From Escherichia phage Ec_Makalu_001: 64,000 bases of DNA. Of this stretch, positions 8,263 to 29,721 are shown piece by piece (positions within the stretch are counted from its first letter, which is position 1; every line of letters begins with the position of its first letter). The stretch lies in sequence record MN894885.1, one strand, 5' to 3'. The notes beneath the pieces were generated by a model, which did not search any database, was not told where the DNA came from, and saw nothing but the letters and a program-made list of their open reading frames with translations. A program made the translations under genes and the position numbers.

Positions 8263-8661
8263 TCATTTTGCAAGTCTTATGCGTAGTTGTTCAAGATCAT
8301 CTGGGTTATCTATTACTGAAAAGTAGATTGATACTATGATTGAATTATCGTCGTACTGCGGAGTTACTTCTACTGTCAGGTTTCGGACCCGTGGTTCATA
8401 GTTTCGGATTGCCTCATTAATGTTTTTTGATAAGGTATCCACTGTCAGTGGGTTCATGTTCTCAAACAGTGATTTATTGAGGTCACATCCAAACAGTGGA
8501 TCAAATGGACGAGATCCCTTGCGAGTAGTCACGATCAGTAGAATAGAATCCTTAACCGCTTTAATTCCTATGTTCTTTTTAACGTCGTTATTCCACGATC
8601 TGGATATATTGAGATCCAAATCAGTATACATCTGATTAATTGTTGCCATGTTATACCTCAA
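8263..8661 (-). CDS. 25: Baseplate wedge protein gp25 (lysozyme-like fold)
   Basis: 132 aa; TTRKGSRPFDPxFGCDL and FSVIDNPDDxEQ motifs as in T4 gp25. Confidence 0.88.
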   Translation of the reverse strand: MRYNMATINQMYTDLDLNISRSWNNDVKKNIGIKAVKDSILLIVTTRKGSRPFDPLFGCDLNKSLFENMNPLTVDTLSKNINEAIRNYEPRVRNLTVEVTPQYDDNSIIVSIYFSVIDNPDDLEQLRIRLAK

Positions 8662-9287
8662 AGAATTTTAAGGAAACTGGATAGACCTGATAATGAATAT
8701 ACACCAGATTCCCCGCATTCGCATTTGATCGGTACTGCCAGCGTGATTTGATTTCTTGTTAGCTCGTCGATCACTTCTTCCACTTTATCCGTGGTAAGCA
8801 TATCCAACACGCGGTCAAAGTCCTGCGCGTTCAGGTCGTCTATATTGAATTGCTGATCGCCGATCACGATATATTCGATACATGCAATTACCATCTGCAT
8901 AATATCAACATCTTCTGTAAACTTAGGTTGACGAAACTTGATTTTTACTTGTCCTAAGTCTAGAATATACGGTTCGACTTCTGGTATCTGTGTGCGTGAA
9001 ACATCAAGAGAATATACTTTCTCTTTATTGCATACACCACACACCCAAGTAGCATCAATTTTCATCTTATTGAGGCTGTGACACCATAAGAGAAGAAAAA
9101 TATATTCTGCTTCGCATTTCTCTAGCTCTAATGCATTGATCCCCGTACATTCGTATATAATCTCTATAACAACATCTGACAGCTTGCCAGTCTCTTTTGC
9201 TGCTACCAGTTTTTGAAATTCGCCGAAGGTGAAAGCACGGGCGTGTATCAACTTTTCGCCTATTTGGATCTTGAAAAAGTATTGCAT
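8658..9287 (-). CDS. 26: Baseplate hub protein gp26
   Basis: 209 aa ORF coupled to gene 25 (overlapping stop/start); starts MQYFF as T4 gp26; CxxC pairs; synteny. Confidence 0.55.
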   Translation of the reverse strand: MQYFFKIQIGEKLIHARAFTFGEFQKLVAAKETGKLSDVVIEIIYECTGINALELEKCEAEYIFLLLWCHSLNKMKIDATWVCGVCNKEKVYSLDVSRTQIPEVEPYILDLGQVKIKFRQPKFTEDVDIMQMVIACIEYIVIGDQQFNIDDLNAQDFDRVLDMLTTDKVEEVIDELTRNQITLAVPIKCECGESGVYSLSGLSSFLKIL

Positions 9288-19486: not shown

Positions 19487-19515
19487 AGTACAGGGGATCG
19501 CCGATCCCCTGTCAA
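19487..19515 (-). promoter_or_regulatory. Sigma70-like early promoter with palindromic GATC-containing spacer
   Basis: Minus strand: TTGACA, spacer GGGGATCGGCGATCCCC (17 bp, inverted repeat, two GATC), -10-like hexamer. Confidence 0.5.
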
Positions 19516-19522
19516 CAACTTT

Positions 19523-20041
19523 TTAGTTATTTTTTAATTGCTCATCTTGCAATAGGGCAATCACATGCTGGCGATGTTCTTCCGATTGAGGAACACCGAA
19601 AAAGTTTGTTTTGTAGAAATACTCTAATCGGTCTTCTCGTGTGCTCTCTTCCATCATGATCGCGGGTAGTCCGAGATTTCGGAAACGTCGCTTTTCTGCT
19701 GGCGTAAAATCACTGTAATACAACATAGAATCATCATTACCAGCAATGCTAAACTCATCCTTCATAAAGGAGAATATTGCGTTTAAACGCTGTTTACCGT
19801 CCACGATTTCGATCTCATAGCGAGAGCCATCATCAATCTTAGCCATTGCGATAGCACCAACCGGAAAATCATTAATCAGGTTTTCGATAAACATACGTTT
19901 GTTTTCGGTGTCCCATACCAAAGGACGCTGATAATCTGGGTTCATGTTGATATAGCCATCTTCTAACCACGCCTCATAAACAGAGATGACAAAGTTTTTA
20001 GTATTGGTATAGTAACGGCGTTTAGGCGTTAAACGGTTCAT
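19523..20041 (-). CDS. DUF262 / ParB-like nuclease-domain protein
   Basis: About 172 aa from the internal ATG at 20041 (GGAG RBS; the longer track ORF to 20077 would overlap the upstream gene); motifs DYQRPLVWD and VDGKQRL match the DGQQR signature of the DUF262 ParB/Srx-fold domain; last gene of a coupled 5-gene operon. Confidence 0.5.
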   Translation of the reverse strand: MNRLTPKRRYYTNTKNFVISVYEAWLEDGYINMNPDYQRPLVWDTENKRMFIENLINDFPVGAIAMAKIDDGSRYEIEIVDGKQRLNAIFSFMKDEFSIAGNDDSMLYYSDFTPAEKRRFRNLGLPAIMMEESTREDRLEYFYKTNFFGVPQSEEHRQHVIALLQDEQLKNN

Positions 20042-20042
20042 G

Positions 20043-20375
20043 TTATAGTCTCCTGAATGGATCATCACGTAAATCAATATCTTTTAAGAACTCATCCCAT
20101 GAATGGCGGATATTGTTCTTAATTCTCCAGATAAGCGCAGGGATTGAACGCTCTCCCATCTGGAAGTAAGGATCATATGATCCATATGCCCAATATGCTA
20201 CTACAATTCCACAATCGGCGCAATAATATTCTATTTCACTTGCTGGCGACCAAAGTCCATCAATATGATCACGGATCTTGCTTTCGATGTTATGGCTATG
20301 GCAATCAGGGCAACGGATGCAATGACCTTGTTTATCGTAATTTGACGTTAGCGAATACTTAAACAATCTCATCAT
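20043..20375 (-). CDS. Zinc-ribbon protein
   Basis: 110 aa; CIRCPDCHSH and YYCADCG Cys clusters; ATGA overlap with upstream gene. Confidence 0.45.
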   Translation of the reverse strand: MMRLFKYSLTSNYDKQGHCIRCPDCHSHNIESKIRDHIDGLWSPASEIEYYCADCGIVVAYWAYGSYDPYFQMGERSIPALIWRIKNNIRHSWDEFLKDIDLRDDPFRRL

Positions 20376-21088
20376 AGATCCTTATTGGCTTCAAATACTG
20401 CCTTTGCGAATCCTCGCGGGGTAAGTGACCTGATAGTCTTTGTTCTGGTTCCTTTCCCGCCTAGCTTAGAATGCTGTTTACTGTACCCTTTATTAATCTG
20501 CAACGGTTTCTTTTCTGGCATTATAAAGCCTTGTCCGGTCCATAAGCAAGTCTTTTTCGGGTACATATCACGGGCGGCAATATACTCAGGAAACGTAGGA
20601 TGCTTATCATCTTCCGGCAAATAACCGCCATATTCCCACGGATGGAACATGTAATCAGGCTTACGCCACATGCTAGAGATAACGCTTACAGGATTCTCTA
20701 TCATGTAGGGAACTCCTAGCCATTCACCCAAATAAGCGGTTATTTTAGCTGCCCTTACATCATGAACTTGAATTAATGGTCCTTGTTCTCGTTTCTTTCG
20801 TTCAAAGTGCGCAGCGCCACTAACAGCTAAATTGGTGCATGGTGGGAATGCAAAGATAATATCCGGTTTCCCCCATTCAAGGTCCATTGCTCTTTCCAGC
20901 CAATTTAAATCAATCCATGTGTTTACATATGTAATGTTTGGATGTTCAAATCGGGTATTATATTTTTTGTATGTACCGTGGTCGCCATCGTCAGCATTAA
21001 AGCAGATCACCTTATGACCTGCTTTAGCCCATTCTAACCCCATTATCCCCGATCCGTCAAAGTTGCAGAATATTAATTTTTGTTTCAT
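20372..21088 (-). CDS. C5-cytosine methyltransferase-like protein (compact; PPC catalytic motif)
   Basis: 238 aa; motif I-like FCNFDGSGIMG (FxGxG), motif IV-like FAFPPCT (PC catalytic Cys), motif VI-like IENPV (ENV); no obvious target-recognition domain. Confidence 0.4.
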   Translation of the reverse strand: MKQKLIFCNFDGSGIMGLEWAKAGHKVICFNADDGDHGTYKKYNTRFEHPNITYVNTWIDLNWLERAMDLEWGKPDIIFAFPPCTNLAVSGAAHFERKKREQGPLIQVHDVRAAKITAYLGEWLGVPYMIENPVSVISSMWRKPDYMFHPWEYGGYLPEDDKHPTFPEYIAARDMYPKKTCLWTGQGFIMPEKKPLQINKGYSKQHSKLGGKGTRTKTIRSLTPRGFAKAVFEANKDL

Positions 21089-21330
21089 ATACGCCCCTTT
21101 AACCCAACACAGATTTTAGAAGGTTCTTTGCCGTGCCACATTAAGTAAATTCCGTTAATGCGTCCTTGTTTTGTATATGATTCTTTTCTGATCTTCTTAT
21201 AGTGTCGTGCTTCCTCAGCCGATTGTTTAGAATGTCGATCATAAAGGAAGAGGAACAAAGGCCAACCATTAGCGGCCTTAATGCAGTTATTCAAAAATTC
21301 CTTATTTCGTTTAATTAATTTTCTTTTCAC
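21085..21330 (-). CDS. Hypothetical protein (81 aa)
   Basis: ORF translationally coupled on both sides (ATGA overlaps). Confidence 0.4.
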   Translation of the reverse strand: MKRKLIKRNKEFLNNCIKAANGWPLFLFLYDRHSKQSAEEARHYKKIRKESYTKQGRINGIYLMWHGKEPSKICVGLKGRI

Positions 21331-21578
21331 GCTGCCCCCATTGGTTTGATAGTAACAGAATCTAAAAGACCTTTGTTAGCCAGTTCGCGGCAAGTTTTCA
21401 GATCCGCAACTTCCCAGCCAGCCGCAATAAGGTTATCAATGAGGCTGTTAGCAACTTCTTCGCTCATGAAAGAGCACTGTTTGCCGATGGTGTAGCGTAC
21501 ACGCTGTAATTTCAGTTTACGGAAGCCTTTAACGTTCAGGTCTTTAGCGATTTTCTTTGCGGTTTCGATGTTAGCCAT
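21327..21578 (-). CDS. Hypothetical protein (83 aa), first gene of the operon
   Basis: ORF with GGAGAATCAAAC leader and cassette promoter upstream. Confidence 0.45.
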   Translation of the reverse strand: MANIETAKKIAKDLNVKGFRKLKLQRVRYTIGKQCSFMSEEVANSLIDNLIAAGWEVADLKTCRELANKGLLDSVTIKPMGAA

Positions 21579-21618
21579 TGTTTGATTCTCCTAAGTGGTA
21601 TCTCGTCTTGATGGTTGT

Positions 21619-21647
21619 ATTGTAGGGGAGTTATCCTCCCCTGTCAA
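21619..21647 (-). promoter_or_regulatory. Sigma70-like early promoter with palindromic spacer (operon 21578->19523)
   Basis: Minus strand: TTGACA, spacer GGGGAGGATAACTCCCC (17 bp), TACAAT. Confidence 0.5.
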
Positions 21648-21661
21648 CACTTTTTATAAAA

Positions 21662-21829
21662 TTATTTGTTAATTTCTGGTGCGTTGCTAGGATAGTAACC
21701 TTCTTTAACTCCGAGGTATTTCGCAACCATCCCTACAATCTTCTGTGCTACTACAATGTCAAATTTCAGATAATCTTCGCCGTGGGTTTCAATGATATAT
21801 GCTTCACATGCTGCTTTAGTCTCGAACAT
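21662..21829 (-). CDS. Small protein (55 aa), paralogue of 24945..25112; not in supplied ORF track
   Basis: Own translation MFETKAACEAYIIETHGEDYLKFDIVVAQK...; nucleotide sequence ~85% identical to the 24945-25112 copy; cassette promoter upstream. Confidence 0.5.
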   Translation of the reverse strand: MFETKAACEAYIIETHGEDYLKFDIVVAQKIVGMVAKYLGVKEGYYPSNAPEINK

Positions 21830-21862
21830 TTTGATTCTCCTATTTCGTTTCGGTATGTGTGT

Positions 21863-21891
21863 ATTATAGGGGATCTCCCGATCCCCGTCAA
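21863..21891 (-). promoter_or_regulatory. Sigma70-like early promoter with palindromic GATC-containing spacer
   Basis: Minus strand: TTGACG, spacer GGGATCGGGAGATCCCC, TATAAT. Confidence 0.55.
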
Positions 21892-21905
21892 CAACTTTTT
21901 TAAAA

Positions 21906-22187
21906 TTATTCGTGATTAGTTTCGATATTGTGCATTTTGCACCAGTTCAGCCAATCGCCAAGATCTTGATAGTTGATGCTTTTATCTGCTGCCATCGTTT
22001 TTGTCTTGATACCCATATGTGCGTTATGAGTAAGCATTTTTACAGTGAACTCAATTTTATCGCCTTTAGCTTTAACATCAACCAGTTTGGTCCACTGGCT
22101 ACCAGCACCGCGAATGTTCATACCAACGATGTTTCCGATGTATGCTTCTTTGTTGTTCAGGATTTCGGTTGCTTTGATGAATTTCAT
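21906..22187 (-). CDS. Hypothetical protein (93 aa)
   Basis: ORF with cassette promoter and leader. Confidence 0.45.
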   Translation of the reverse strand: MKFIKATEILNNKEAYIGNIVGMNIRGAGSQWTKLVDVKAKGDKIEFTVKMLTHNAHMGIKTKTMAADKSINYQDLGDWLNWCKMHNIETNHE

Positions 22188-22220
22188 TTTTGATTCTCCA
22201 GTTCGTTTCGGTATGGGTGT

Positions 22221-22249
22221 ATTATGCTATGTTCTTACTTTGGTGTCAA
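22221..22249 (-). promoter_or_regulatory. Sigma70-like early promoter (cassette)
   Basis: Minus strand: TTGACA, 17 bp, CATAAT. Confidence 0.5.
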
Positions 22250-22257
22250 CAACTTTT

Positions 22258-22527
22258 TTAGATATTTTCAGAAATAAATTTTAAAACTTGACGTAAATGT
22301 TTCTCATCTTTGATAGTCGCCGGAAGTTCTTCTTTTACTTCCTGTGCAAGATAGATATTTCCGTTCCAAGTGAAAGACCCGTCTTCGTTTACGCGATAGC
22401 TGAACATCCATTCGCAATCATTTTCGATTTCATATACACACAGAAGGGTGTAATCTTCAAAGCTATTGATTTCAAGGTCGAAGCCGTGGCGTTTTGCAAA
22501 GTTGGTAGTGGTTTTAGTCAGTGCCAT
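22258..22527 (-). CDS. Hypothetical protein (89 aa)
   Basis: ORF with cassette promoter and leader. Confidence 0.45.
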   Translation of the reverse strand: MALTKTTTNFAKRHGFDLEINSFEDYTLLCVYEIENDCEWMFSYRVNEDGSFTWNGNIYLAQEVKEELPATIKDEKHLRQVLKFISENI

Positions 22528-22567
22528 TGTTTGATTCTCCTAAGTGGTATCTCGTTTCGATGGGTGT

Positions 22568-22596
22568 ATTATGCTATAGGCGTGATCAGGTGTCAA
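22568..22596 (-). promoter_or_regulatory. Sigma70-like early promoter (cassette)
   Basis: Minus strand: TTGACA, 17 bp, CATAAT. Confidence 0.5.
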
Positions 22597-22621
22597 TGCC
22601 TTTTTTAAAATTTTATGCAAT

Positions 22622-22645
22622 AAAAAAGCCGACACTAAGGTCGGC
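22622..22645 (-). terminator. Rho-independent terminator (minus strand)
   Basis: Hairpin gccgacc-ttagt-gtcggc followed by UUUUUU on the minus strand. Confidence 0.55.
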
Positions 22646-22653
22646 TAATAAAA

Positions 22654-22962
22654 TCATTTAGGCAAATAATCATTCAGTGCAATCCGGTCGGCATGTTCCG
22701 GCGTTACATCAATCGCAATCACTTTAACGCGTGCTTTCTTGCGACCTGGGTTTTCTCGTAACCAGTGCTCATGACCGTGAACATTTTTATACTGCGATGC
22801 TTCTTCGAAGGTACGGATCGGACCAGGGTAATCAGCGTAAAGGATCTCTAGGTCATCGGTGATGTAAAAATATACGTTGTAATTACTGTTCTCTAGCTTA
22901 AGCAGAGACTTTCGGAACATTGGGAGATTTTCGCGGGTAAATTCAAAAGTAATATCTTTCAT
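22654..22962 (-). CDS. Paralogue family A member 1 (HxHW...AIDV motif protein)
   Basis: About 102 aa from the internal ATG at 22962 (GAGGA RBS); motifs YFYITDDLEILYADY, HGHEHW, KVIAIDV shared with five neighbouring ORFs. Confidence 0.5.
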   Translation of the reverse strand: MKDITFEFTRENLPMFRKSLLKLENSNYNVYFYITDDLEILYADYPGPIRTFEEASQYKNVHGHEHWLRENPGRKKARVKVIAIDVTPEHADRIALNDYLPK

Positions 22963-22986
22963 AGTATTATCCTCAATAGTTGGATG

Positions 22987-23006
22987 AAAAGGGGGCTTAA
23001 CGCCCC
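22987..23006 (-). terminator. Rho-independent terminator (minus strand), duplicate of the 18965-18985 hairpin
   Basis: Same ggggcgttaagcccc hairpin plus U-run. Confidence 0.45.
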
Positions 23007-23011
23007 ATATA

Positions 23012-23299
23012 TTAAAACAGTCCTTCCTGTACACCGTAGTAGAGTTCGTCGCTGATAATTTCATTAATGCGACGGTGTGCATATTCCTGATTTGCGAAGT
23101 TGTCAGCAAGTTCTACTTTAGTTTCACCGTCATGAGTCCATTTAGTGATAACTTTACCATCTGCAAATTTGAAGTTGAACTCTTTAGCTACTGCATCGCG
23201 TACCAGACGTGCGAACTTGTTGTTACGGATTGCATTATCGGTTTCGTGTGCAGCGTGAGCAAATTTGTTAACTTTCAGAGTGATAGTGATGTATGCCAT
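23012..23299 (-). CDS. Paralogue family B member 1
   Basis: 95 aa; region NAIRNNKFARLVRDAVAKEF shared with 26330..26641 (NAILIREVRKALAKEF). Confidence 0.45.
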   Translation of the reverse strand: MAYITITLKVNKFAHAAHETDNAIRNNKFARLVRDAVAKEFNFKFADGKVITKWTHDGETKVELADNFANQEYAHRRINEIISDELYYGVQEGLF

Positions 23300-23344
23300 A
23301 ATTTGATTCTCCTAGTTAGAAAGTGTATCTCGTTTCGATGGGTG

Positions 23345-23373
23345 TATTATGCTATACACCCGATCTTATGTCA
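23345..23373 (-). promoter_or_regulatory. Sigma70-like early promoter (cassette; palindrome GGGTGTAT/ATACACCC flanks -10)
   Basis: Minus strand: TTGACA, 17 bp, CATAAT. Confidence 0.5.
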
Positions 23374-23382
23374 ACACTTTTT

Positions 23383-23676
23383 TTATAAAATAATTTTTTG
23401 ATATTTTTCTATGATGTTTGTGTAATCCACATCAACCGCTATCACCGTTGCTTCGAATCCACCGTTTAGCCAATGGCTATGGTCATGATCGTGAAAGAAA
23501 CCAAGACCAGTACGAAGACCTTCTTTATATTCGGCGCGTACATTTAGATCATCATCGATAAACAGATAAAACCATGAATTTTTACTAGGATTGATGATAC
23601 AACCTTTCAGATTAGGGAGAATATCACGACTAAGAATAAACTTATCACCTACTTTGAACATAATATTAGTCCTCAC
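23383..23676 (-). CDS. Paralogue family A member 2
   Basis: 97 aa; FYLFIDDDLNVRAEY, HDHDHSHW, VIAVDV. Confidence 0.5.
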   Translation of the reverse strand: MRTNIMFKVGDKFILSRDILPNLKGCIINPSKNSWFYLFIDDDLNVRAEYKEGLRTGLGFFHDHDHSHWLNGGFEATVIAVDVDYTNIIEKYQKIIL

Positions 23677-23989
23677 TTATAAGGTCAAACCAATTGTTTT
23701 TCGCATAATGCTTAATGCGTGCTTGATCTGCTTCCGCTGGTGATAGATTCCATGCAACCACTACAACTTCTGACGCGTCGTCATCCGTTTCTGATACCCA
23801 ATGATTGTGATTCATACAGTTATTTGCGATCGAGTGAGCAAATGATTTCATCACTGGAGACGTATAATCATAGTAACGGATTTTCAGATTTTCATCAACA
23901 TACAAGTAGATCGTATAAGGTTTATATTCAGTAACCAGTAACAGACAGTTACGCAATTCTGGGAAAATCTTTTTAGTTAATTTCATTTT
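23666..23989 (-). CDS. Paralogue family A member 3
   Basis: About 107 aa from the internal ATG at 23989 (GAGGA RBS); YLYVDENLKIRYYDY, NHNHW, VVVVAWN. Confidence 0.45.
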   Translation of the reverse strand, partial: KMKLTKKIFPELRNCLLLVTEYKPYTIYLYVDENLKIRYYDYTSPVMKSFAHSIANNCMNHNHWVSETDDDASEVVVVAWNLSPAEADQARIKHYAKNNWFDLISED

Positions 23990-24206
23990 ATAATCCTCGG
24001 TCGCGGCTATAGTACACGGTACGCCATACAATTTCATGTTTCGTGTCGCTCCAGCACACGATCTCATTTACTCTTAAATCTTTGTTATCAACAAAAGATG
24101 AACATTGTGACGCTTCTTTCATCATTTTATCTGCTGTTTTCTCATCAAATACAGCACAGATTTCTTTATACACTCGATAATCTTTGAATTGACTCTGGAT
24201 ACCCAT
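23988..24206 (-). CDS. Paralogue family C member 2
   Basis: QSQFKDYRVYKEICAVFDEKTADKMMKEASQCSSF shared with 24166..24423; start uncertain (overlaps neighbour). Confidence 0.35.
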   Translation of the reverse strand: MGIQSQFKDYRVYKEICAVFDEKTADKMMKEASQCSSFVDNKDLRVNEIVCWSDTKHEIVWRTVYYSRDRGL

Positions 24207-24423
24207 AATTAACACCATTCCAACCAATTGTTTTTGAGAAAACGTTTATCCACTGTTGAGTGTAGCATGTTTCTTTCCATGATACAATACGAGTAGAATA
24301 ATGGTTTTTGTTTCCAGAAAAGGACGGGCATTTTGATGCATCTTCCATCATCTTTTCGGCGAACTCCGCGTCATATACCCGCAGGATCTGTTGATATGCT
24401 TTATAATCTTTAAATTTGCTCAT
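24166..24423 (-). CDS. Paralogue family C member 1
   Basis: 85 aa; SKFKDYKAYQQILRVYDAEFAEKMMEDASKCPSF. Confidence 0.4.
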   Translation of the reverse strand: MSKFKDYKAYQQILRVYDAEFAEKMMEDASKCPSFSGNKNHYSTRIVSWKETCYTQQWINVFSKTIGWNGVNYGYPESIQRLSSV

Positions 24424-24688
24424 AATTGTTAACTACCTTATCAGCTTCTTTTATTGTTTTTACATCAACTGCGATAATCCGTAAAGGTTCGTCGAAGGTC
24501 CACCAGTGGTCATGAATATCAGCTTGTGATTTATCACCAAAGGAATCACGAATATCATTTTTACATTTATAGCTAATATGGCCTTCATAGTCAACATAAA
24601 GGTAATTATCGAAAATCGGCGTTTTTAAGATCATACCGAAAAATCTTTCTTTGTGTGTCTTATCCAGTGTTGCAGTAATTCGCATCAT
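24410..24688 (-). CDS. Paralogue family A member 4
   Basis: 92 aa; YLYVDYEGHISY, HDHWW, IIAVDV. Confidence 0.5.
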   Translation of the reverse strand: MMRITATLDKTHKERFFGMILKTPIFDNYLYVDYEGHISYKCKNDIRDSFGDKSQADIHDHWWTFDEPLRIIAVDVKTIKEADKVVNNYEQI

Positions 24689-24700
24689 AATATATTCCTC

Positions 24701-24880
24701 TTAGAAAGGGATGGTCATTTCTTGAGCTTGTACATTCTCGTTAGGATTAAACTTCATCCAACCGATATTGTCTACCAGCATATGTACATTTTTATCATAT
24801 CCTACGTGAGTAGTCAACACTAAATGTGCTTTGCCTTCAACGATGATTTCCATGTACTTCTGAACTTCGATAGCTTTCAT
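24701..24880 (-). CDS. Small protein (59 aa), not in supplied ORF track
   Basis: Own translation MKAIEVQKYMEIIVEGKAHLVLTTHVGYDKNVHMLV...; GGAGAATCAAA leader and cassette promoter upstream. Confidence 0.4.
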   Translation of the reverse strand: MKAIEVQKYMEIIVEGKAHLVLTTHVGYDKNVHMLVDNIGWMKFNPNENVQAQEMTIPF

Positions 24881-24912
24881 TTTGATTCTCCGTTTGTTTT
24901 CTTGATGGGAGT

Positions 24913-24941
24913 ATCTTACTACTCCCTTTAATCATTGTCAA
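24913..24941 (-). promoter_or_regulatory. Sigma70-like early promoter (cassette; 20-bp palindrome GGGAGTAGTAAGATACTCCC spans -10)
   Basis: Minus strand: TTGACA, 17 bp, TAAGAT. Confidence 0.45.
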
Positions 24942-24944
24942 CTA

Positions 24945-25112
24945 TTATTTGTTAATTTCTGGTGCGTTGCTCGGATAGTAACCTTCTTTAACACCCAGAT
25001 ATTTTGCAACCATTCCGGTGATCTTCTGTGCTACTACGATATCGAATTTCAGGTAGTCTTCACCGTGGTTTGCTACAATGTATGCTTCGCATTCTGCTTT
25101 AGTCTCGAACAT
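24945..25112 (-). CDS. Small protein (55 aa), paralogue of 21662..21829
   Basis: Track ORF 24945..25178 trimmed to the ATG at 25112, which follows the cassette promoter and RBS; MFETKAECEAYIVANHGEDYLKFDIVVAQK... Confidence 0.5.
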   Translation of the reverse strand: MFETKAECEAYIVANHGEDYLKFDIVVAQKITGMVAKYLGVKEGYYPSNAPEINK

Positions 25113-25146
25113 TTTTGATTCTCCTATATCTCGTTGGTATGTGTGT

Positions 25147-25175
25147 AGTATAGGGGATCTGCGATCCCCTGTCAA
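25147..25175 (-). promoter_or_regulatory. Sigma70-like early promoter with palindromic GATC-containing spacer
   Basis: Minus strand: TTGACA, spacer GGGGATCGCAGATCCCC, TATACT. Confidence 0.55.
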
Positions 25176-25180
25176 CAACT

Positions 25181-25474
25181 TTATAATGCTTTATACGCGT
25201 ATTTCATAAATTTGTCTGCCACTTCATTGGCATGTTCAGATTCTACGCCTGATTCGAGAACAATAGCTAGGTCGGTTTCGTCATTCCCGCCGTACCAATG
25301 ATTTGATGTTCGATTTTTTTCAATTGGAAATTGGTCACTTTTATCTGTGCGACAAAATACATCTAAATGCTCGTCGATGTAAAAGATCCAATCTTCATAA
25401 AGAATAACGGTATTAGCAAGATTTTTATTGCCTTCAACGAAAGGTTCCGCGACAAATAGCTTAGTTTGTTCCAT
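25181..25474 (-). CDS. Paralogue family A member 5
   Basis: About 97 aa from the internal ATG at 25474 (GAGGA RBS); ILYEDWIFYIDEHLDVF, SNHWYGG, AIVLESG. Confidence 0.45.
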   Translation of the reverse strand: MEQTKLFVAEPFVEGNKNLANTVILYEDWIFYIDEHLDVFCRTDKSDQFPIEKNRTSNHWYGGNDETDLAIVLESGVESEHANEVADKFMKYAYKAL

Positions 25475-25490
25475 AGTAATTTCCTCAAAA

Positions 25491-25682
25491 TTATACAGTT
25501 TCGTAAACTTCCCAATGTTCAGCGCCAACACGCTTAACGAAAAGGTTTTCTTTGATGTTATTCATAAACGTCTGGATGGATTTAATGCGGTTTGAAGGTT
25601 TCCATTCTTCGTTGGCATTGCGTCGATACATCATAACATTACCAGTTCGCTTATATTCAGCAACCATTTTAAGACCACACAT
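25491..25682 (-). CDS. Hypothetical small basic protein (63 aa)
   Basis: ORF with GAGGA RBS. Confidence 0.4.
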   Translation of the reverse strand: MCGLKMVAEYKRTGNVMMYRRNANEEWKPSNRIKSIQTFMNNIKENLFVKRVGAEHWEVYETV

Positions 25683-25739
25683 AATATTATCCTCAATTTG
25701 TGGGAGAGTATTACCCCTCCCAATGATTGTTATGTTATA

Positions 25740-26060
25740 TCACACAAAATGGCGTGTCAATGCTTCTTTTGCGGTTCCGCTAAGACTTTCAATCTCGCCT
25801 GGCATAACATCAACCGCCAGAACTTCTACAACATCTTCGGACCCTAACCAGTGAGTATGGCCTTTGTAGAACTTGATAACCAGACCACCTTCCTCGTCCC
25901 ATTTAACGCTATCGCTAGCCCACCACACATCACCGTCGATAAAGTTGATGTAAAGCACACTACGCCACATTGAATTAATTACTTTCAATACTGCGCCTTT
26001 CATCTCTTCCACGGTATGGTCTTCCATTTTGAAGACCTCACCTACCTGAACTTTTGCCAT
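25740..26060 (-). CDS. Paralogue family A member 6
   Basis: 106 aa; LYINFIDGDVWW, KGHTHW, VLAVDV. Confidence 0.5.
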   Translation of the reverse strand: MAKVQVGEVFKMEDHTVEEMKGAVLKVINSMWRSVLYINFIDGDVWWASDSVKWDEEGGLVIKFYKGHTHWLGSEDVVEVLAVDVMPGEIESLSGTAKEALTRHFV

Positions 26061-26077
26061 TTAGTCACCTCTCTTTA

Positions 26078-26257
26078 TTACATAACAATCACGCCAGCCG
26101 TTGAAAGTTGATGTTTCAACTGAGCATTTTCTGCTACCGTCAAATCAATGATTTCTTGTGACGCTGCAATCATATATCCATTGGTGATATTGTTTTGCAT
26201 CAGTTCAATGGTCTCTTCGTTGTAGCGGATTTTAGCGATGATTTCGTTGAAGTTCAT
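26078..26257 (-). CDS. Small protein (59 aa), not in supplied ORF track
   Basis: Own translation MNFNEIIAKIRYNEETIELMQNNITNGYMIAASQ...; cassette promoter and GGAGAATCAAAC leader. Confidence 0.4.
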   Translation of the reverse strand: MNFNEIIAKIRYNEETIELMQNNITNGYMIAASQEIIDLTVAENAQLKHQLSTAGVIVM

Positions 26258-26291
26258 GTTTGATTCTCCTAGTTCGTTTCGGTATGTGTGT

Positions 26292-26321
26292 ATTATAGGG
26301 GAGTTTAACCTCCCCTGTCAA
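26292..26321 (-). promoter_or_regulatory. Sigma70-like early promoter with palindromic spacer
   Basis: Minus strand: TTGACA, spacer GGGGAGGTTAAACTCCCC (18 bp), TATAAT. Confidence 0.5.
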
Positions 26322-26329
26322 CAACTTTT

Positions 26330-26641
26330 TTAAAGTTTTTCCATGATAACGGTCATAATTACATCTTCTGCGCGAGCGGTCAGATTATCAGCGTCAGTAT
26401 GTGGGCGGTTGGTTGTTACAGAGATAACACCGTTGCGCACTGGTTTGATATTGATATCAAGATGATCCGCGAAACGTTCGCCAGTTACAGAATGAATTTT
26501 GGTGTTAAATTCTTTTGCCAGTGCCTTGCGAACTTCACGAATCAGGATAGCGTTTTTCAGTTGGTTCTCCGCGCTCATGGTCTTCTGAGTGTTCATGGTT
26601 CCGTCGAAGTCAATCATTGGCAGCGTTACGATGTATTTCAT
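26330..26641 (-). CDS. Paralogue family B member 2
   Basis: 103 aa; shares NAILIREVRKALAKEFN region with 23012..23299. Confidence 0.45.
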   Translation of the reverse strand: MKYIVTLPMIDFDGTMNTQKTMSAENQLKNAILIREVRKALAKEFNTKIHSVTGERFADHLDINIKPVRNGVISVTTNRPHTDADNLTARAEDVIMTVIMEKL

Positions 26642-26686
26642 TTTTGATTCTCCGTTTAAGAAAGTGTGTTTCGTTTTGATGTGTGT

Positions 26687-26715
26687 AGTATAGGGGATAC
26701 GTGATCCCCTGTCAA
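26687..26715 (-). promoter_or_regulatory. Sigma70-like early promoter with palindromic GATC-containing spacer
   Basis: Minus strand: TTGACA, spacer GGGGATCACGTATCCCC, TATACT. Confidence 0.55.
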
Positions 26716-26728
26716 CAACTTTTTTGAA

Positions 26729-27205
26729 TTATTTTTCTTGATGCTCGCGCTCGTACTTTTCGAAATAAAATTCTACTGGCTGGTCATGAATTGACAGCAA
26801 GCCAAAGCGTTTAGCCGCTCGCAATCCCATATTGCGCTGAATGTACTTCTGGAAGTTCTCGCGTATACACTTACGCCAGTATTCTAAGCCCATACAGCTT
26901 TTATAAAGATTGCATTGCACACACGCCGGATTCATGTTATCAAGTATATCATGCTCCGGTTTATGCATTCCTACAACCTTATACTTCCACGATCCATCAT
27001 CGTTACGGGCAATGCGACCATTTTCATCATAGACTACTTTTGAGCGTCGTAATACTGGTTTGATGTGGTCTGCGTGCCAGCGATCCCCTAGTTCCTCACC
27101 ACAATAGGCACAACGTCCACCGTATTTCATTTTCAGGATCTGGCGTTGCTCTTTCTTTGACAATTTTTTAGGTTTAGGGGCTTTCGCCCCTTCATTATCA
27201 CACAT
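26729..27205 (-). CDS. HNH endonuclease
   Basis: 158 aa; CAYCGEEL...HADHIKP...N...CVQCN fits the HNH zinc-finger nuclease signature; start overlaps the stop of the DNA ligase gene. Confidence 0.6.
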   Translation of the reverse strand: MCDNEGAKAPKPKKLSKKEQRQILKMKYGGRCAYCGEELGDRWHADHIKPVLRRSKVVYDENGRIARNDDGSWKYKVVGMHKPEHDILDNMNPACVQCNLYKSCMGLEYWRKCIRENFQKYIQRNMGLRAAKRFGLLSIHDQPVEFYFEKYEREHQEK

Positions 27206-28700
27206 CGAATACCTCTTTTACTGTATTTGCAGTGGTCTTGTCGTAGCGAATACGTTTGATGATTGGGAGAAATAAAGAGAACTCCGGTTCATCTTCTTTA
27301 CGTGATTTGCTGCGAATGTACCCGTTGCATGTCATCTCAATGACTTTTCCAATCAGGTTATGACGGTCAGCCCATAACATTTCTCGGTCGAGTTCATTTC
27401 GACGATCGAACGGAATTACACGTTCAATACCATCATCATCTTTTTCGGTTGTGGTGTCGGTCAATCCCGATCCGGTGTTAGTCGTCATTCGTCCGCACGC
27501 ACTACGGACAGTAAAACCGCCTACCTTGTTAGGATCTTTACTATGCGGATATACATCAACAATTTCCGCGTCGAAGTCAATCACTTCTTTAAATTTAACC
27601 TGATCTTTACTGCGACGATCTTCAAATACACCATGTAAATTTTTAAGGATAATACCTTCCAATCCCATGTTTACATAGCGATGATATACTTCGCGAGCTT
27701 CATCGATATTGTTAACTACAGTGTTTTCGATTATCTGAACACGAGGATCGTTAAGTTCTTCAACAATCTGTTTTAGTTCTTCGAATCGATCTTTATATTG
27801 CTTCGTTGCTTTCTCGTTTCCGTAATACACATCACGGTCGATAACATCCCAGACAGTGTAAACAATACATTGGGCTTCTTCTTTTGGAATAGTTCCTTTC
27901 AGTGATTTGTTGAGGATACCATTTCCGGTCTGACGGTCTGCAACAACGGATTCTTTCACTGCTTCCGCTACTGGCGTTAATGGCATTTCCTCTTCTTCAA
28001 ATATCCATGATAGAGTACCATCATAAACGCTCTCAACGAAGTTCTGCGCTGGTGTTTGAGAAAGGGTAGGCATATATACCAACTCACCATCTAAAACAAT
28101 TCCACGGCCTCGTAGACGCTCTAAAACAGCAAACAAATCATCCAGCCCCTGATAGGTATTACCTGAACGGGTATAGATTGCTAATGTTTCTCCGTCAATA
28201 TCAGCCATACCACGAGCGCCATCGCTTTTAAGTTGTGCATACGCCGGATATTTGATATTGGCAATAGTCTTATCAGAACATGACGATGCAAGGTGGCAAG
28301 GTTGCTGAGGAATCAGCTTCTTCCATACCTTGTTTGCGGTGGTAGCGGAACAACCGCATTCCAGATCACGATTCAGGACCATCATTGCAACTTTAGCATC
28401 ATCTTCTGACAAGCAAGTCAGAGTATCGGTAACTAGCTGTAATGCAGCATTACCAGTTACTTGACGCGTGGCAAGTTTATTTTTAAAGACCTGTAATGCA
28501 CCGGATAAAGACAATACAGACGAATAGCGAGACGGTTTATCGTATTTCTTTACGCCAAACGTAACCTGCTTGCAATATGCCAGATAAAAGCATTCTTTCA
28601 GCGTTTCATTGCTTGCAGATTCTTTCAGGATCTTTTCTTTCAGCGATGTTTTGTCAGTGGCTGCAAGCTGATTAATGATATTAAGAATTGACATTTTCAC
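27198..28700 (-). CDS. 30: ATP-dependent DNA ligase gp30
   Basis: 500 aa; adenylation motif KSDGARG (KxDG), IILKN, DAEIVDVYPHSKDPNKVGGF; close to remembered T4 ligase. Confidence 0.88.
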   Translation of the reverse strand: MKMSILNIINQLAATDKTSLKEKILKESASNETLKECFYLAYCKQVTFGVKKYDKPSRYSSVLSLSGALQVFKNKLATRQVTGNAALQLVTDTLTCLSEDDAKVAMMVLNRDLECGCSATTANKVWKKLIPQQPCHLASSCSDKTIANIKYPAYAQLKSDGARGMADIDGETLAIYTRSGNTYQGLDDLFAVLERLRGRGIVLDGELVYMPTLSQTPAQNFVESVYDGTLSWIFEEEEMPLTPVAEAVKESVVADRQTGNGILNKSLKGTIPKEEAQCIVYTVWDVIDRDVYYGNEKATKQYKDRFEELKQIVEELNDPRVQIIENTVVNNIDEAREVYHRYVNMGLEGIILKNLHGVFEDRRSKDQVKFKEVIDFDAEIVDVYPHSKDPNKVGGFTVRSACGRMTTNTGSGLTDTTTEKDDDGIERVIPFDRRNELDREMLWADRHNLIGKVIEMTCNGYIRSKSRKEDEPEFSLFLPIIKRIRYDKTTANTVKEVFDV

Positions 28701-29160
28701 CTCGTTTTGTTAAACGTTCACGAATATCGTTTAGGATACTACAAAATTCCGATTCGGTCAATATGGTCTTTAACGGATCAGTTCCACCTATGCTATGACG
28801 CAATTTCTTATTTCCGGTAGCGAGCAATGCTTTACAAAAATCTGGGTTATTTCGTGCCATCGTAACAAATGCCAGATGTACCAGTCTGTAATAATGCTCA
28901 CTCATTCGATGAATCGGGCGACCCTGAAAATATAGCATGTGATTCTCTATCTTTTCAGTCCTTCCGGTTCTTTTTGCTTTGCAGCCGTGCATCAAAAAGA
29001 TTTCTCTTTGTCTCTGAGGGTTCTTAAATCTTAGCCCCTGTAAAAATCCTTCTGTGCTGTTAATATCGCAACCAAATAGACGGAATGGCCTTTTATTGAA
29101 ATTACTCAACTCGCCAGATGGATAAGGTCCACCCGCATAGATATCAATTTCAGAAGTCAT
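28681..29160 (-). CDS. Hypothetical protein (30.x position)
   Basis: 159 aa ORF coupled to the ligase start; no recognised motif. Confidence 0.45.
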   Translation of the reverse strand: MTSEIDIYAGGPYPSGELSNFNKRPFRLFGCDINSTEGFLQGLRFKNPQRQREIFLMHGCKAKRTGRTEKIENHMLYFQGRPIHRMSEHYYRLVHLAFVTMARNNPDFCKALLATGNKKLRHSIGGTDPLKTILTESEFCSILNDIRERLTKRGENVNS

Positions 29161-29359
29161 TGAAACTAATCTCGCTAATCAGAGAGAACGGATCATAATC
29201 GTCATGAGGAATATCGATAGTAATCGAGTGAGGATTTACCCATACACCAAACTGGTCTTCTTCGGTGAATACTTCGGTATGGATTTCGTGGATGTTTACA
29301 TTCATAGTTTTCATAATAAAAATTCCTTAATAATCAATAACTTACAAAATCATATAGCC

Positions 29360-29386
29360 AAAATATAGGCGGGATTATTTCCCGCC
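29360..29386 (-). terminator. Putative terminator (minus strand) after gene 31
   Basis: Hairpin ggcgggaaataatcccgcc followed by a T-rich run on the minus strand. Confidence 0.4.
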
Positions 29387-29397
29387 GTTTAAACTCA

Positions 29398-29721
29398 TTA
29401 ACCGTAAACTACCACAATATTCTGTTTGTGTGTTACAGTCCATTTCAGGTCGATCTCTTCTTCCTTCTTAACGCCGTTAATAACGTCTGGATGAGGAACT
29501 TTATTCATCTTGCCGTGTGGCAGTAGAACAGTTTTACCCAGCAATTCTTTATCTACAGTTTCACCAATATCAATAATCTTACCTACCAGCGGAATCTCGC
29601 CCATAGTGCGCTTTTGCTCAATAATGATCCCCATAGAGCTTTTTACTTCGGTTCCTGCGCTTTCTGCTTTAGCTTCGATAATTACATAATCACCAAGTGC
29701 TTTAGGAGTTTTAACGGTCAT
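29398..29721 (-). CDS. 31: Co-chaperonin gp31 (GroES-like)
   Basis: 107 aa; GDYVII...GIII...VPHP pattern resembles T4 gp31; synteny. Confidence 0.7.
   Translation of the reverse strand: MTVKTPKALGDYVIIEAKAESAGTEVKSSMGIIIEQKRTMGEIPLVGKIIDIGETVDKELLGKTVLLPHGKMNKVPHPDVINGVKKEEEIDLKWTVTHKQNIVVVYG

Follow-up and report, generated by a model that had tools for sequence, protein, structure and literature searches.

Why does a phage keep six short, mutually dissimilar genes in one array, and what might their products do? The question is raised by positions 22,654 to 26,060 of a 64,000-nucleotide stretch of Escherichia phage Ec_Makalu_001 (sequence record MN894885.1), the whole of which is referred to here as the window. 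An initial annotation of this DNA had proposed that six open reading frames (ORFs), interleaved with other small genes, are strongly diverged paralogues in an accessory region, and this proved correct. A1 to A6, as we term them, almost certainly make up one real family (family A), which arose by ancient duplication; its proteins are small (92-106 aa), soluble and for the most part acidic. In every Krischvirus examined, purifying selection maintains each of the six copies. Recombination exchanges whole alleles, and the family, above all one connector within its predicted fold, is far more divergent than its neighbours. The 5-kb stretch around the array is 93-97% identical to Krischvirus genomes (RB49, kaaroe, KFS-EC, phi1, JSE and Sf20), and the source is a Krischvirus, an RB49-like T4-type coliphage of the family Straboviridae. 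The six ORFs, all on the minus strand and furnished with ATG starts, GAGG-type Shine-Dalgarno sequences and stop codons, are orthologues of RB49p197, 199, 200, 203, 206 and 208, each annotated as "hypothetical protein" in RB49:

22654..22962, minus strand: A1, 102 aa, RB49 ORF197; phrog_9345 (E 8e-46); HEHW at 22762-22773 (within HGHEHW), YFYIT at 22858-22872, VIAIDV at 22705-22722.
23383..23661, minus strand: A2, 92 aa, RB49 ORF199; phrog_17255 (residues 6-97 of the long ORF); HSHW at 23470-23481, part of an HDHDHSHW run.
23666..23986, minus strand: A3, 106 aa, RB49 ORF200; phrog_9345 (E 4e-52); HNHW at 23798-23809.
24410..24688, minus strand: A4, 92 aa, RB49 ORF203; phrog_15972; HDHW at 24503-24514.
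25181..25474, minus strand: A5, 97 aa, RB49 ORF206; phrog_15965; SNHW at 25295-25306.
25740..26060, minus strand: A6, 106 aa, RB49 ORF208; phrog_16486; HTHW at 25848-25859.

The coordinates first assigned to A1, A4, A5 and A6 stand, and two starts had to be moved. A2 most likely begins at ATG 23661 instead of GTG 23676, because both RB49p199 and the phrog_17255 profile begin there, and A3 begins at ATG 23986, the earlier 23989 overshooting upstream by one codon (AAA). With these starts, 4 nt separate the A3 stop from the A2 start, and the ribosome-binding site of A2 lies within A3. The 3' end of A4 overlaps the start of the following gene (ATG 24423).

Pairwise identities among A1-A6 are only 14-33%, and A5 departs from two of the three strict motifs, so that a compositional resemblance, or ORFs that are not genes at all, had to be considered. 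To this end, we built a hidden Markov model (HMM) from five members and searched it against the 751 six-frame ORFs of the window, leaving out each member in turn. The left-out sixth was always the top non-training match (E = 7e-11, 3e-8, 3e-11, 4e-5, 8e-3 and 1e-6), the next ORF scoring at least 0.07. The weak case is A5, the most divergent and most acidic of the six, which carries SNHW and VLESGV; most of its orthologues have HNHW, and a profile of the A5 subfamily aligned with one of all other members at an hhalign probability of 98.3% (E 1e-14). Together with dN/dS ratios (nonsynonymous to synonymous substitution rates) far under 1, conserved ribosome-binding sites, orthologues known from dozens of genomes, and confident, concordant structure predictions, these statistics exclude the artefact explanation for practical purposes. 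The profile search revealed no seventh member among the 751 window ORFs. The ORF at 8266-8667 (E 0.007) was dropped, being by eye a gp25-type baseplate protein with leave-one-out E values of 0.07-0.5.

The three-motif architecture described earlier is likewise real: the order and spacing of the motifs are consistent throughout the family, so the concern that they are products of composition is not borne out. Their wording was looser than the sequences allow. The first motif, given as Y-x-[FY]-[IV]-D-[DE], fits two of the six members and the third, [IV][IL]A[IV]DV, four, so both are approximate; HxHW holds in five, A5 with SNHW being the exception. A strict H.HW occurs in just 5 of the 751 window ORFs, all of them family members. 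Across 24 diverse members (A1 numbering), H66 and W67 are invariant and Y33 and H64 nearly so. In several of these proteins T, N, H or G stands where motifs 1 and 3 otherwise have an acidic residue, and the first histidine of HxH is lost in the window A5 and in one distant member (P0090).

AlphaFold modelling, another check proposed at the outset, yielded concordant models for A1 and A5, consistent with a single fold. The A1 model (19-sequence alignment) has a mean predicted local distance difference test score of 84.5 and a predicted template modelling (TM) score of 0.79, with the order b1-a-b2-b3-b4-a-a(HxHW)-b5-a; the A5 model (25-sequence alignment; 84.2 and 0.80) shares the strand order and the C-terminal helix. 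Other members, as modelled in BFVD, match the A1 model on superposition with TM scores of 0.58-0.78. All members are thus predicted to share a five-stranded beta-sheet with a C-terminal helix. The invariant H-W, usually as HxHW, is placed by the models in a poorly ordered connector running from strand 4 to strand 5, the least confident stretch of both (block means 67 in A1, 68-72 in A5). A Foldseek search of BFVD with the A1 model returned only family members and uncharacterised proteins, a PDB sequence-profile search gave nothing under E 0.77, and no solved structure matches the predicted fold. No member has a hydrophobic segment long enough for a membrane span. Isoelectric points mostly lie at 4.1-6.7, a few members being neutral or basic, and the net charge of A5-subfamily proteins is -10 to -17; such acidity argues against simple nucleic-acid binding.

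How far does the family extend? Among 5.8 billion proteins, a word-indexed search retrieved orthologues only, with at least 69% identity to one of the six; those from long contigs came from contigs of 154-176 kb. When 1.84 billion 50%-identity representatives were searched exhaustively with HMMER, 21 proteins reached E <= 1e-3, two of them spurious. The true clusters number about 19: the six window subfamilies and a dozen more distant members (P0085-P0098). Of the two rejected proteins, P0094 (1034 aa) is eukaryote-like and reached E 3e-9 through six near-identical repeats with FYMD...HSHTW...VAIKV. Its apparent MAM-type repeats (by eye) sum weak beta-strand matches, its motif is HxHxW and not HxHW, and we judge its resemblance in all three motifs to be a coincidence of strand patterns. 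P0099 (532 aa), with apparent PPC-type repeats, was rejected as a sum of weak beta-strand matches too.

Two distant members, P0097 and P0089, were searched by tblastn against 50,697 cultured phage records and matched only Krischvirus paralogues at less than 40% identity; metagenome contigs are thus the only known source of the distant members. The same two, the only ones searched there, had no match in IMG/VR. Contigs long enough to show flanks have the arrangement ligase(-HNH), members, alt. Among them are a 169-kb Krischvirus contig (L005) with six members and a more distant T4-like phage (L008/L010; ligase 72% identity) with two A5-like members. A further metagenome contig (SRR8048117_15661; L002) has four member ORFs, among them P0089 (823-1434, 203 aa), a natural fusion of two family domains with HNHW in each, directly followed by A4-like and A3-like genes. 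T4 has no family A member in its ligase-alt interval. Family A thus occurs only in RB49-like phages of the T4 type, namely Krischvirus and a few relatives that are uncultured, and wherever flanks are readable its members always lie within the hyperplastic interval between ligase (gene 30) and alt. In a neighbour-joining tree, five of the six window paralogues cluster with distant orthologues of their own (A4 with P0095; A6 with P0091; A1 with P0087; A3 with P0085/P0088/P0092; A5 with P0090/P0093/P0096-98), A2 being the exception, so the duplications predate those lineages.

The initial annotation did not recognise the family, and indeed no curated family or solved structure matches it. Scans of 24 members against Pfam-A, NCBIfam and PADLOC gave no match at curated cut-offs. 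The weak matches recurred in at most one member for each Pfam family and at most two for NCBIfam, far under cut-off; PROCT, UPF0758_N and T4_Y03C, each seen in a single member, were dropped. PHROGs holds the same genes in database form, kept as five unrelated groups (9345, 17255, 15972, 15965 and 16486), all annotated "unknown function", which the window proteins match over the full profile length at E of about 1e-46 to 1e-72. The only cross-links there are weak matches tying 9345 and 17255 to A2, A3 and A6. The union of all five, 15972 and 15965 included, follows from the leave-one-out and hhalign profile tests. Text searches of PMC2839356 and of the RB49 genome paper (PMC1524935) gave no report of ORFs 197/199/200/203/206/208 as a family, and our searches of the literature on anti-defence, paralogues and early genes in RB49 and Krischvirus turned up nothing on family A or its function.

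We compared the array across 13 loci, namely RB49, eleven other cultured Krischvirus genomes and the L005 contig, and calculated dN/dS by the Nei-Gojobori method, both over whole genes and with the connector set against the remainder of each gene. All 13 keep six members in unchanged order, the A2 slot of L005 being occupied by a second A3-like gene. The initial annotation had read the diversity as that of a family under arms-race selection. The diversity itself is evident, since the family is unusually variable between otherwise near-identical phages: mean amino-acid identity is 87.6% for A1 and 84.5% for A5, against 99.8% for o23012, 98.6% for o22258, 99.9% for o26078 and 99.3% for the ligase. 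The selection regime read from it was not supported. dN/dS is 0.11-0.24 in all six family genes (0.01-0.13 in immediately adjacent genes) and 0.10-0.22 in the b4-b5 connector, and the array is stable at every locus.

Silent sites point the same way. dS reaches 0.30 in A1 and 0.56 in A5 against about 0.1 in flanking genes, and in the connector, compared with the rest of the gene, dS is 1.2-3.3 times higher in all six genes and dN higher in five of the six. Among A5 and A6 orthologues, variable sites and indels are concentrated in the loop preceding HxHW. That synonymous divergence is raised as well points to old alleles swapped by recombination more than to fast amino-acid change. In the L005 contig, whose ligase is 98.8% identical to that of the window, A3-like genes with 44% and 53% identity to the window A3 occupy the A3 and A2 slots, respectively. 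The window phage is itself a mosaic of Makalu002-like and RB49-like DNA. It is about 100% identical to Makalu002 at 19500-24900 and 27750-29500, and from about 25000 to 27500 it is RB49-like and either 78-92% identical to Makalu_002 or missing there. This patch of about 2.5 kb holds A5, o25491, A6, o26078, o26330 and part of the HNH and ligase genes, and its left breakpoint adjoins a promoter-plus-stem-loop (PeSL) cassette at 25126-25195. Taken together, the pattern is that of long-established allele classes that recombine and are held under purifying selection. Balancing or frequency-dependent selection would be compatible with it; an arms race is not demonstrated.

When would these genes be expressed? 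The initial annotation placed several family genes behind strong promoters of their own, which is not the case. The minus strand has eight sigma-70 promoters close to consensus (11-12 of 12 hexamer positions), their -35 elements starting at 26715, 26321, 25175, 23374, 22596, 22249, 21891 and 21647. None directly precedes a family gene; the interleaved genes are the promoter-proximal ones. In most of them a G/C-rich stem-loop separates the -35 and -10 hexamers, and the eight are the PeSL cassettes described by Arbiol et al. 2010 (PMC2839356). The elements and interleaved genes that matter for the array are these:

26292..26321, minus strand: PeSL early promoter, TTGACA-18-TATAAT (12/12), with a GGGGAG/CTCCCC stem-loop between the hexamers.
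25147..25175, minus strand: PeSL early promoter (11/12), equivalent of RB49 PeSL206/205.
23346..23374, minus strand: PeSL early promoter (11/12).
22992..23006, minus strand: terminator-like stem-loop GGGGC-GTTAA-GCCCC with a T-run, between o23012 and A1.
22627..22646, minus strand: intrinsic terminator directly after A1.
26078..26257, minus strand: o26078, 59 aa, unrelated to family A, first cistron before A6, 99.9% conserved.
25491..25682, minus strand: o25491, 63 aa, unrelated to family A, before A5, missing in 4 of the 13 compared loci.
24701..24880, minus strand: o24701, 59 aa, unrelated to family A, before A4.
24166-24423 and 23988-24206, minus strand: o24166 and o23988, mutual paralogues (E 5e-16) outside family A.
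23012..23299, minus strand: o23012, 95 aa, before A1, 99.8% conserved.

From this layout we infer three operons: P26321 followed by o26078, A6, o25491 and A5; P25175 followed by o24945, o24701, A4, o24166, o23988, A3 and A2; and P23374 followed by o23012, the hairpin, A1 and the terminator. As the promoters do not stand directly before family genes, early expression is a matter of inference: the six would be transcribed at once upon infection, being distal cistrons of sigma-70 PeSL operons. In RB49/phi1, PeSL206/205 (that copy, not the one in the window) gave about 13,000 Miller units as a lacZ fusion, an experimental demonstration that PeSL promoters of these phages are strong (PMC2839356). 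A1, lacking a consensus promoter of its own, would need read-through of the 22992-23006 hairpin. Phage G37-3 has ARNOLD terminators annotated at the equivalent places. A second repeated intergenic cassette occurs at 22963-23010, before A1, and at 25683-25730, before o25491; it consists of a G/C-rich hairpin followed by a common translation-start region, ATTGAGGATAATA(C/T)TATG. An obligate two-gene module of a partner and a family gene was considered and dropped, the preceding gene differing between paralogues and lineages.

The wider interval holds about 25 small genes in Krischvirus and a single one (alt.1, 62 aa) in T4, and it is among the hyperplastic regions that PMC2839356 describes for RB49 and phi1. 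The array is bounded as follows:

26729-27205: HNH endonuclease gene, on the ligase side of the array.
27198-28700: DNA ligase gp30 (gene 30), on the same side as the HNH endonuclease gene.
20372-21088: Dcm-like C5-cytosine methyltransferase, on the alt side of the array.

Beyond the methyltransferase lies a DUF262/GmrSD_N-like protein and, further out, alt; Alt-type ADP-ribosyltransferases are also encoded in the island that harbours family A. The segment at 19523-21088 comprises the DUF262/GmrSD_N-like protein (172 aa), a 110-aa protein with a zinc-ribbon-like Cys/His set, and the methyltransferase, and restriction-related functions adjoining family A are plausible there. The HNH gene and the end of the ligase gene overlap by 8 nt, and RB49, PHB13, Sf20, G37-3 and G2248 have beside the HNH gene an extra 345-bp ORF, annotated in Sf20 as a predicted membrane protein, that the window lacks.

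Duplication is widespread here, 12 of the 20 genes between the methyltransferase and HNH genes belonging to paralogue groups. The adjacent o24166 and o23988 share the N-terminus FKDY(K/R)(A/V)Y, and o23988 occurs in Krischvirus genomes as two allele classes, with about 64% and 97-100% identity to the window. o23012 (95 aa) and o26330 (26330-26641, 103 aa; missing from 5 of the 13 compared loci) show weak reciprocal similarity (E 3e-4), and each is the first cistron after a PeSL. A 55-aa gene (MFETKA...) is present in two copies, at 21662-21829 and 24945-25112 (86% identity over 172 nt; phmmer E 2e-34), each with its own PeSL in front.

What, then, do the proteins do? T4-type phages have hundreds of small early genes without an assigned role, and several of those that have been solved turned out to act in counter-defence or host shutoff. 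Host takeover or anti-defence, and metal or nucleic-acid binding by the conserved His pair, were the roles suggested in the initial annotation; they are conjectures, and it is genomic context and evolutionary pattern that bear on the first two. The reading that we prefer, tentatively and as a possibility short of a probability, is that family A proteins are early, non-catalytic binders or inhibitors of components of the host or of competing phages. They would probably act as dimers, with His-x-His-Trp as a common anchor, possibly for a metal ion or a shared ligand, and each paralogue and allele would owe its specificity to the variable connector. Non-enzymatic action is suggested by the scarcity of invariant residues and the variation at the acidic positions; the lack of matches to catalytic families in the Pfam, NCBIfam and PADLOC scans points the same way. 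The natural two-domain fusion P0089 and the A3-A2 pair, apparently translationally coupled, argue for dimers, and the exposure of H-x-H-W next to a hypervariable connector suggests a shared anchor with a specificity loop. A binding role also draws support from the company the genes keep, since the island holds the Dcm-like methyltransferase, the GmrSD_N-like protein and ADP-ribosyltransferases.

Several observations weigh against this proposal. An invariant motif in all six paralogues would more typically reflect a shared ligand or cofactor than six different protein targets, and characterised homologues that might speak for any function are lacking. We detected no positive selection in whole genes or in the connector, and the raised dS means that old alleles and recombination can explain the diversity without an arms race. 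In contrast to many counter-defence loci, the array keeps a constant number and order of genes. In kvi (L012 3629-3886) and JSE (P0081), two viable phages, a frameshift or truncation interrupts the A1 orthologue just after or just before HxHW, so A1 is dispensable, at least in the laboratory. The early timing would follow from promoter consensus and from published tests of equivalent RB49/phi1 sequences, and a terminator-like hairpin precedes A1. A more specific form of the proposal, a hitherto unrecognised counter-defence fold family of dimeric binders or sponges in which HxHW holds a ligand or metal and the connector picks the immune target of each paralogue or allele, strikes us as unlikely. 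Six different immune targets, if real, would explain why all six genes are retained by phages whose DNA, as we take to be the case for the RB49 type, contains unmodified cytosine.

The invariant His and Trp are better accommodated if the proteins are sponges, whose HxHW pocket, possibly at a dimer interface, sequesters a small molecule: an immune signalling nucleotide, a signal derived from nicotinamide adenine dinucleotide, or a metal ion, with paralogues tuned to different ligands. The sole invariant residues, one His and the Trp, with another His nearly so, are of the kind that typically stack on or coordinate ligands, extra histidines surround the motif in several members (HDHDHSHW in A2, HGHEHW in A1), the proteins are small and acidic, and the two-domain fusion hints at oligomers. 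Yet the first His is lost in the window A5 and in P0090, and two invariant residues are few for a defined pocket; sponges remain an outside possibility in our estimate. We consider it distinctly unlikely that the family serves the phage itself, as modulators of transcription, replication or nucleotide metabolism or in a chaperone-like role, with its diversity stemming from relaxed constraint and PeSL-driven shuffling. Stable copy number and order, purifying selection with no sign of positive selection, a position among conserved early genes beside the ligase, and other paralogue pairs nearby, which make duplication common in the region, are what such a role would lead one to expect. Core functions, however, are usually conserved across T4-like genera, whereas family A is absent from T4 and nearly confined to Krischvirus-like phages; A1 is a pseudogene in two viable phages; and the replacement of alleles at 44-53% identity in genomes 98-100% identical fits a housekeeping partner poorly. 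Small HxH metalloenzymes (a nuclease, a phosphoesterase, or a JAMM-, HIT- or HUH-like hydrolase) are brought to mind by the HxH with acidic residues nearby in motifs 1 and 3 and by a sub-threshold Pfam match of A2 to PROCT, an MPN-type family (E 0.0034; 17.7 bits against a cut-off of 23.6). This match occurs in 1 of 24 members, though, and several members have T, N, H or G at the acidic positions. Some members can do without the first His, the gap between HxH and the next conserved Asp differs by more than 10 residues, which is not so in JAMM, and the residue between the histidines is hydrophilic, unlike in HUH and HIT. Catalysis of this kind is very improbable.

Several known families were also examined and set aside. 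Family A does not fit the JAMM/MPN metalloproteases, which combine a fixed E...HxH-x7-S-x2-D spacing with an MPN fold. It does not fit the HIT (HxHxHxx) and HUH proteins either, which have hydrophobic residues between and after the histidines, a HIT or RRM-like Rep fold and, in HUH, a catalytic tyrosine, nor the papain-like cysteine peptidases (Cif, C39, deubiquitinases), with their conserved catalytic Cys on an N-terminal helix and His on a strand. DUF2829 sponges (Tad2/AcrIIA7) were rejected for want of a Pfam DUF2829 match or significant structural similarity.

In summary, our work unites six hypothetical proteins, spread over five PHROGs, as one motif-defined family with a confident structural model that has no solved relative and a genomic address between ligase and alt. 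Its signature is unusual, combining obligate six-copy retention, deep allelic diversity and cassette replacement. Duplicated ORFans in the hyperplastic regions of T4-type phages are already well known as a kind of thing, and the family is a good candidate rather than a discovery; it offers a well-defined and cheap target of six genes of about 300 bp with natural allele panels. Should its members turn out to be inhibitors or sponges, the anti-defence repertoire would gain a new fold, and there would be a worked case of PeSL-mediated allele exchange in a set of functional genes; otherwise they would be an ordinary example of ORFan duplication in a hyperplastic region.

Among known systems, the DUF2829 proteins (Tad2, AcrIIA7) and the Tas1 immunity protein (PDB 6ox6_B) resemble family A in size (about 80-100 aa), in their mixed alpha/beta fold and as probable oligomers; they differ in that family A has no sequence-profile similarity to them. 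The T-even internal-protein (IPI/II/III) locus, reportedly characterised by Repoila and colleagues in 1994 as a polymorphic small-protein locus, is like family A in combining small, diverged, dispensable proteins, a conserved short element with a variable remainder, and a plastic region. Internal proteins have a common N-terminal capsid-targeting sequence, are cleaved at (L/I)xE and are packaged. In family A no N-terminal peptide is conserved, and it was not assigned to this group; its N-termini differ between members, form strand 1 of the predicted fold, and belong to genes in sigma-70 early operons. Closest in setting are the PeSL ORFans of RB49 and phi1, which come from the same phage group and region and, as in the window, are small genes among promoter-plus-stem-loop cassettes of about 70-100 bp. 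Arbiol et al. 2010 (PMC2839356) and Comeau et al. 2014 (PMC4122927) describe such cassettes together with the gain and loss of single ORFans. Family A agrees with that description in consisting of ORFans within a hyperplastic region. It departs from it in that its genes are not PeSL-proximal cistrons, with no PeSL immediately upstream, and are neither gained nor lost among Krischvirus genomes, all 13 loci keeping six. The accompanying model of PeSL-based modular shuffling nonetheless fits the mosaic patch of the window, one breakpoint of which lies beside a PeSL.

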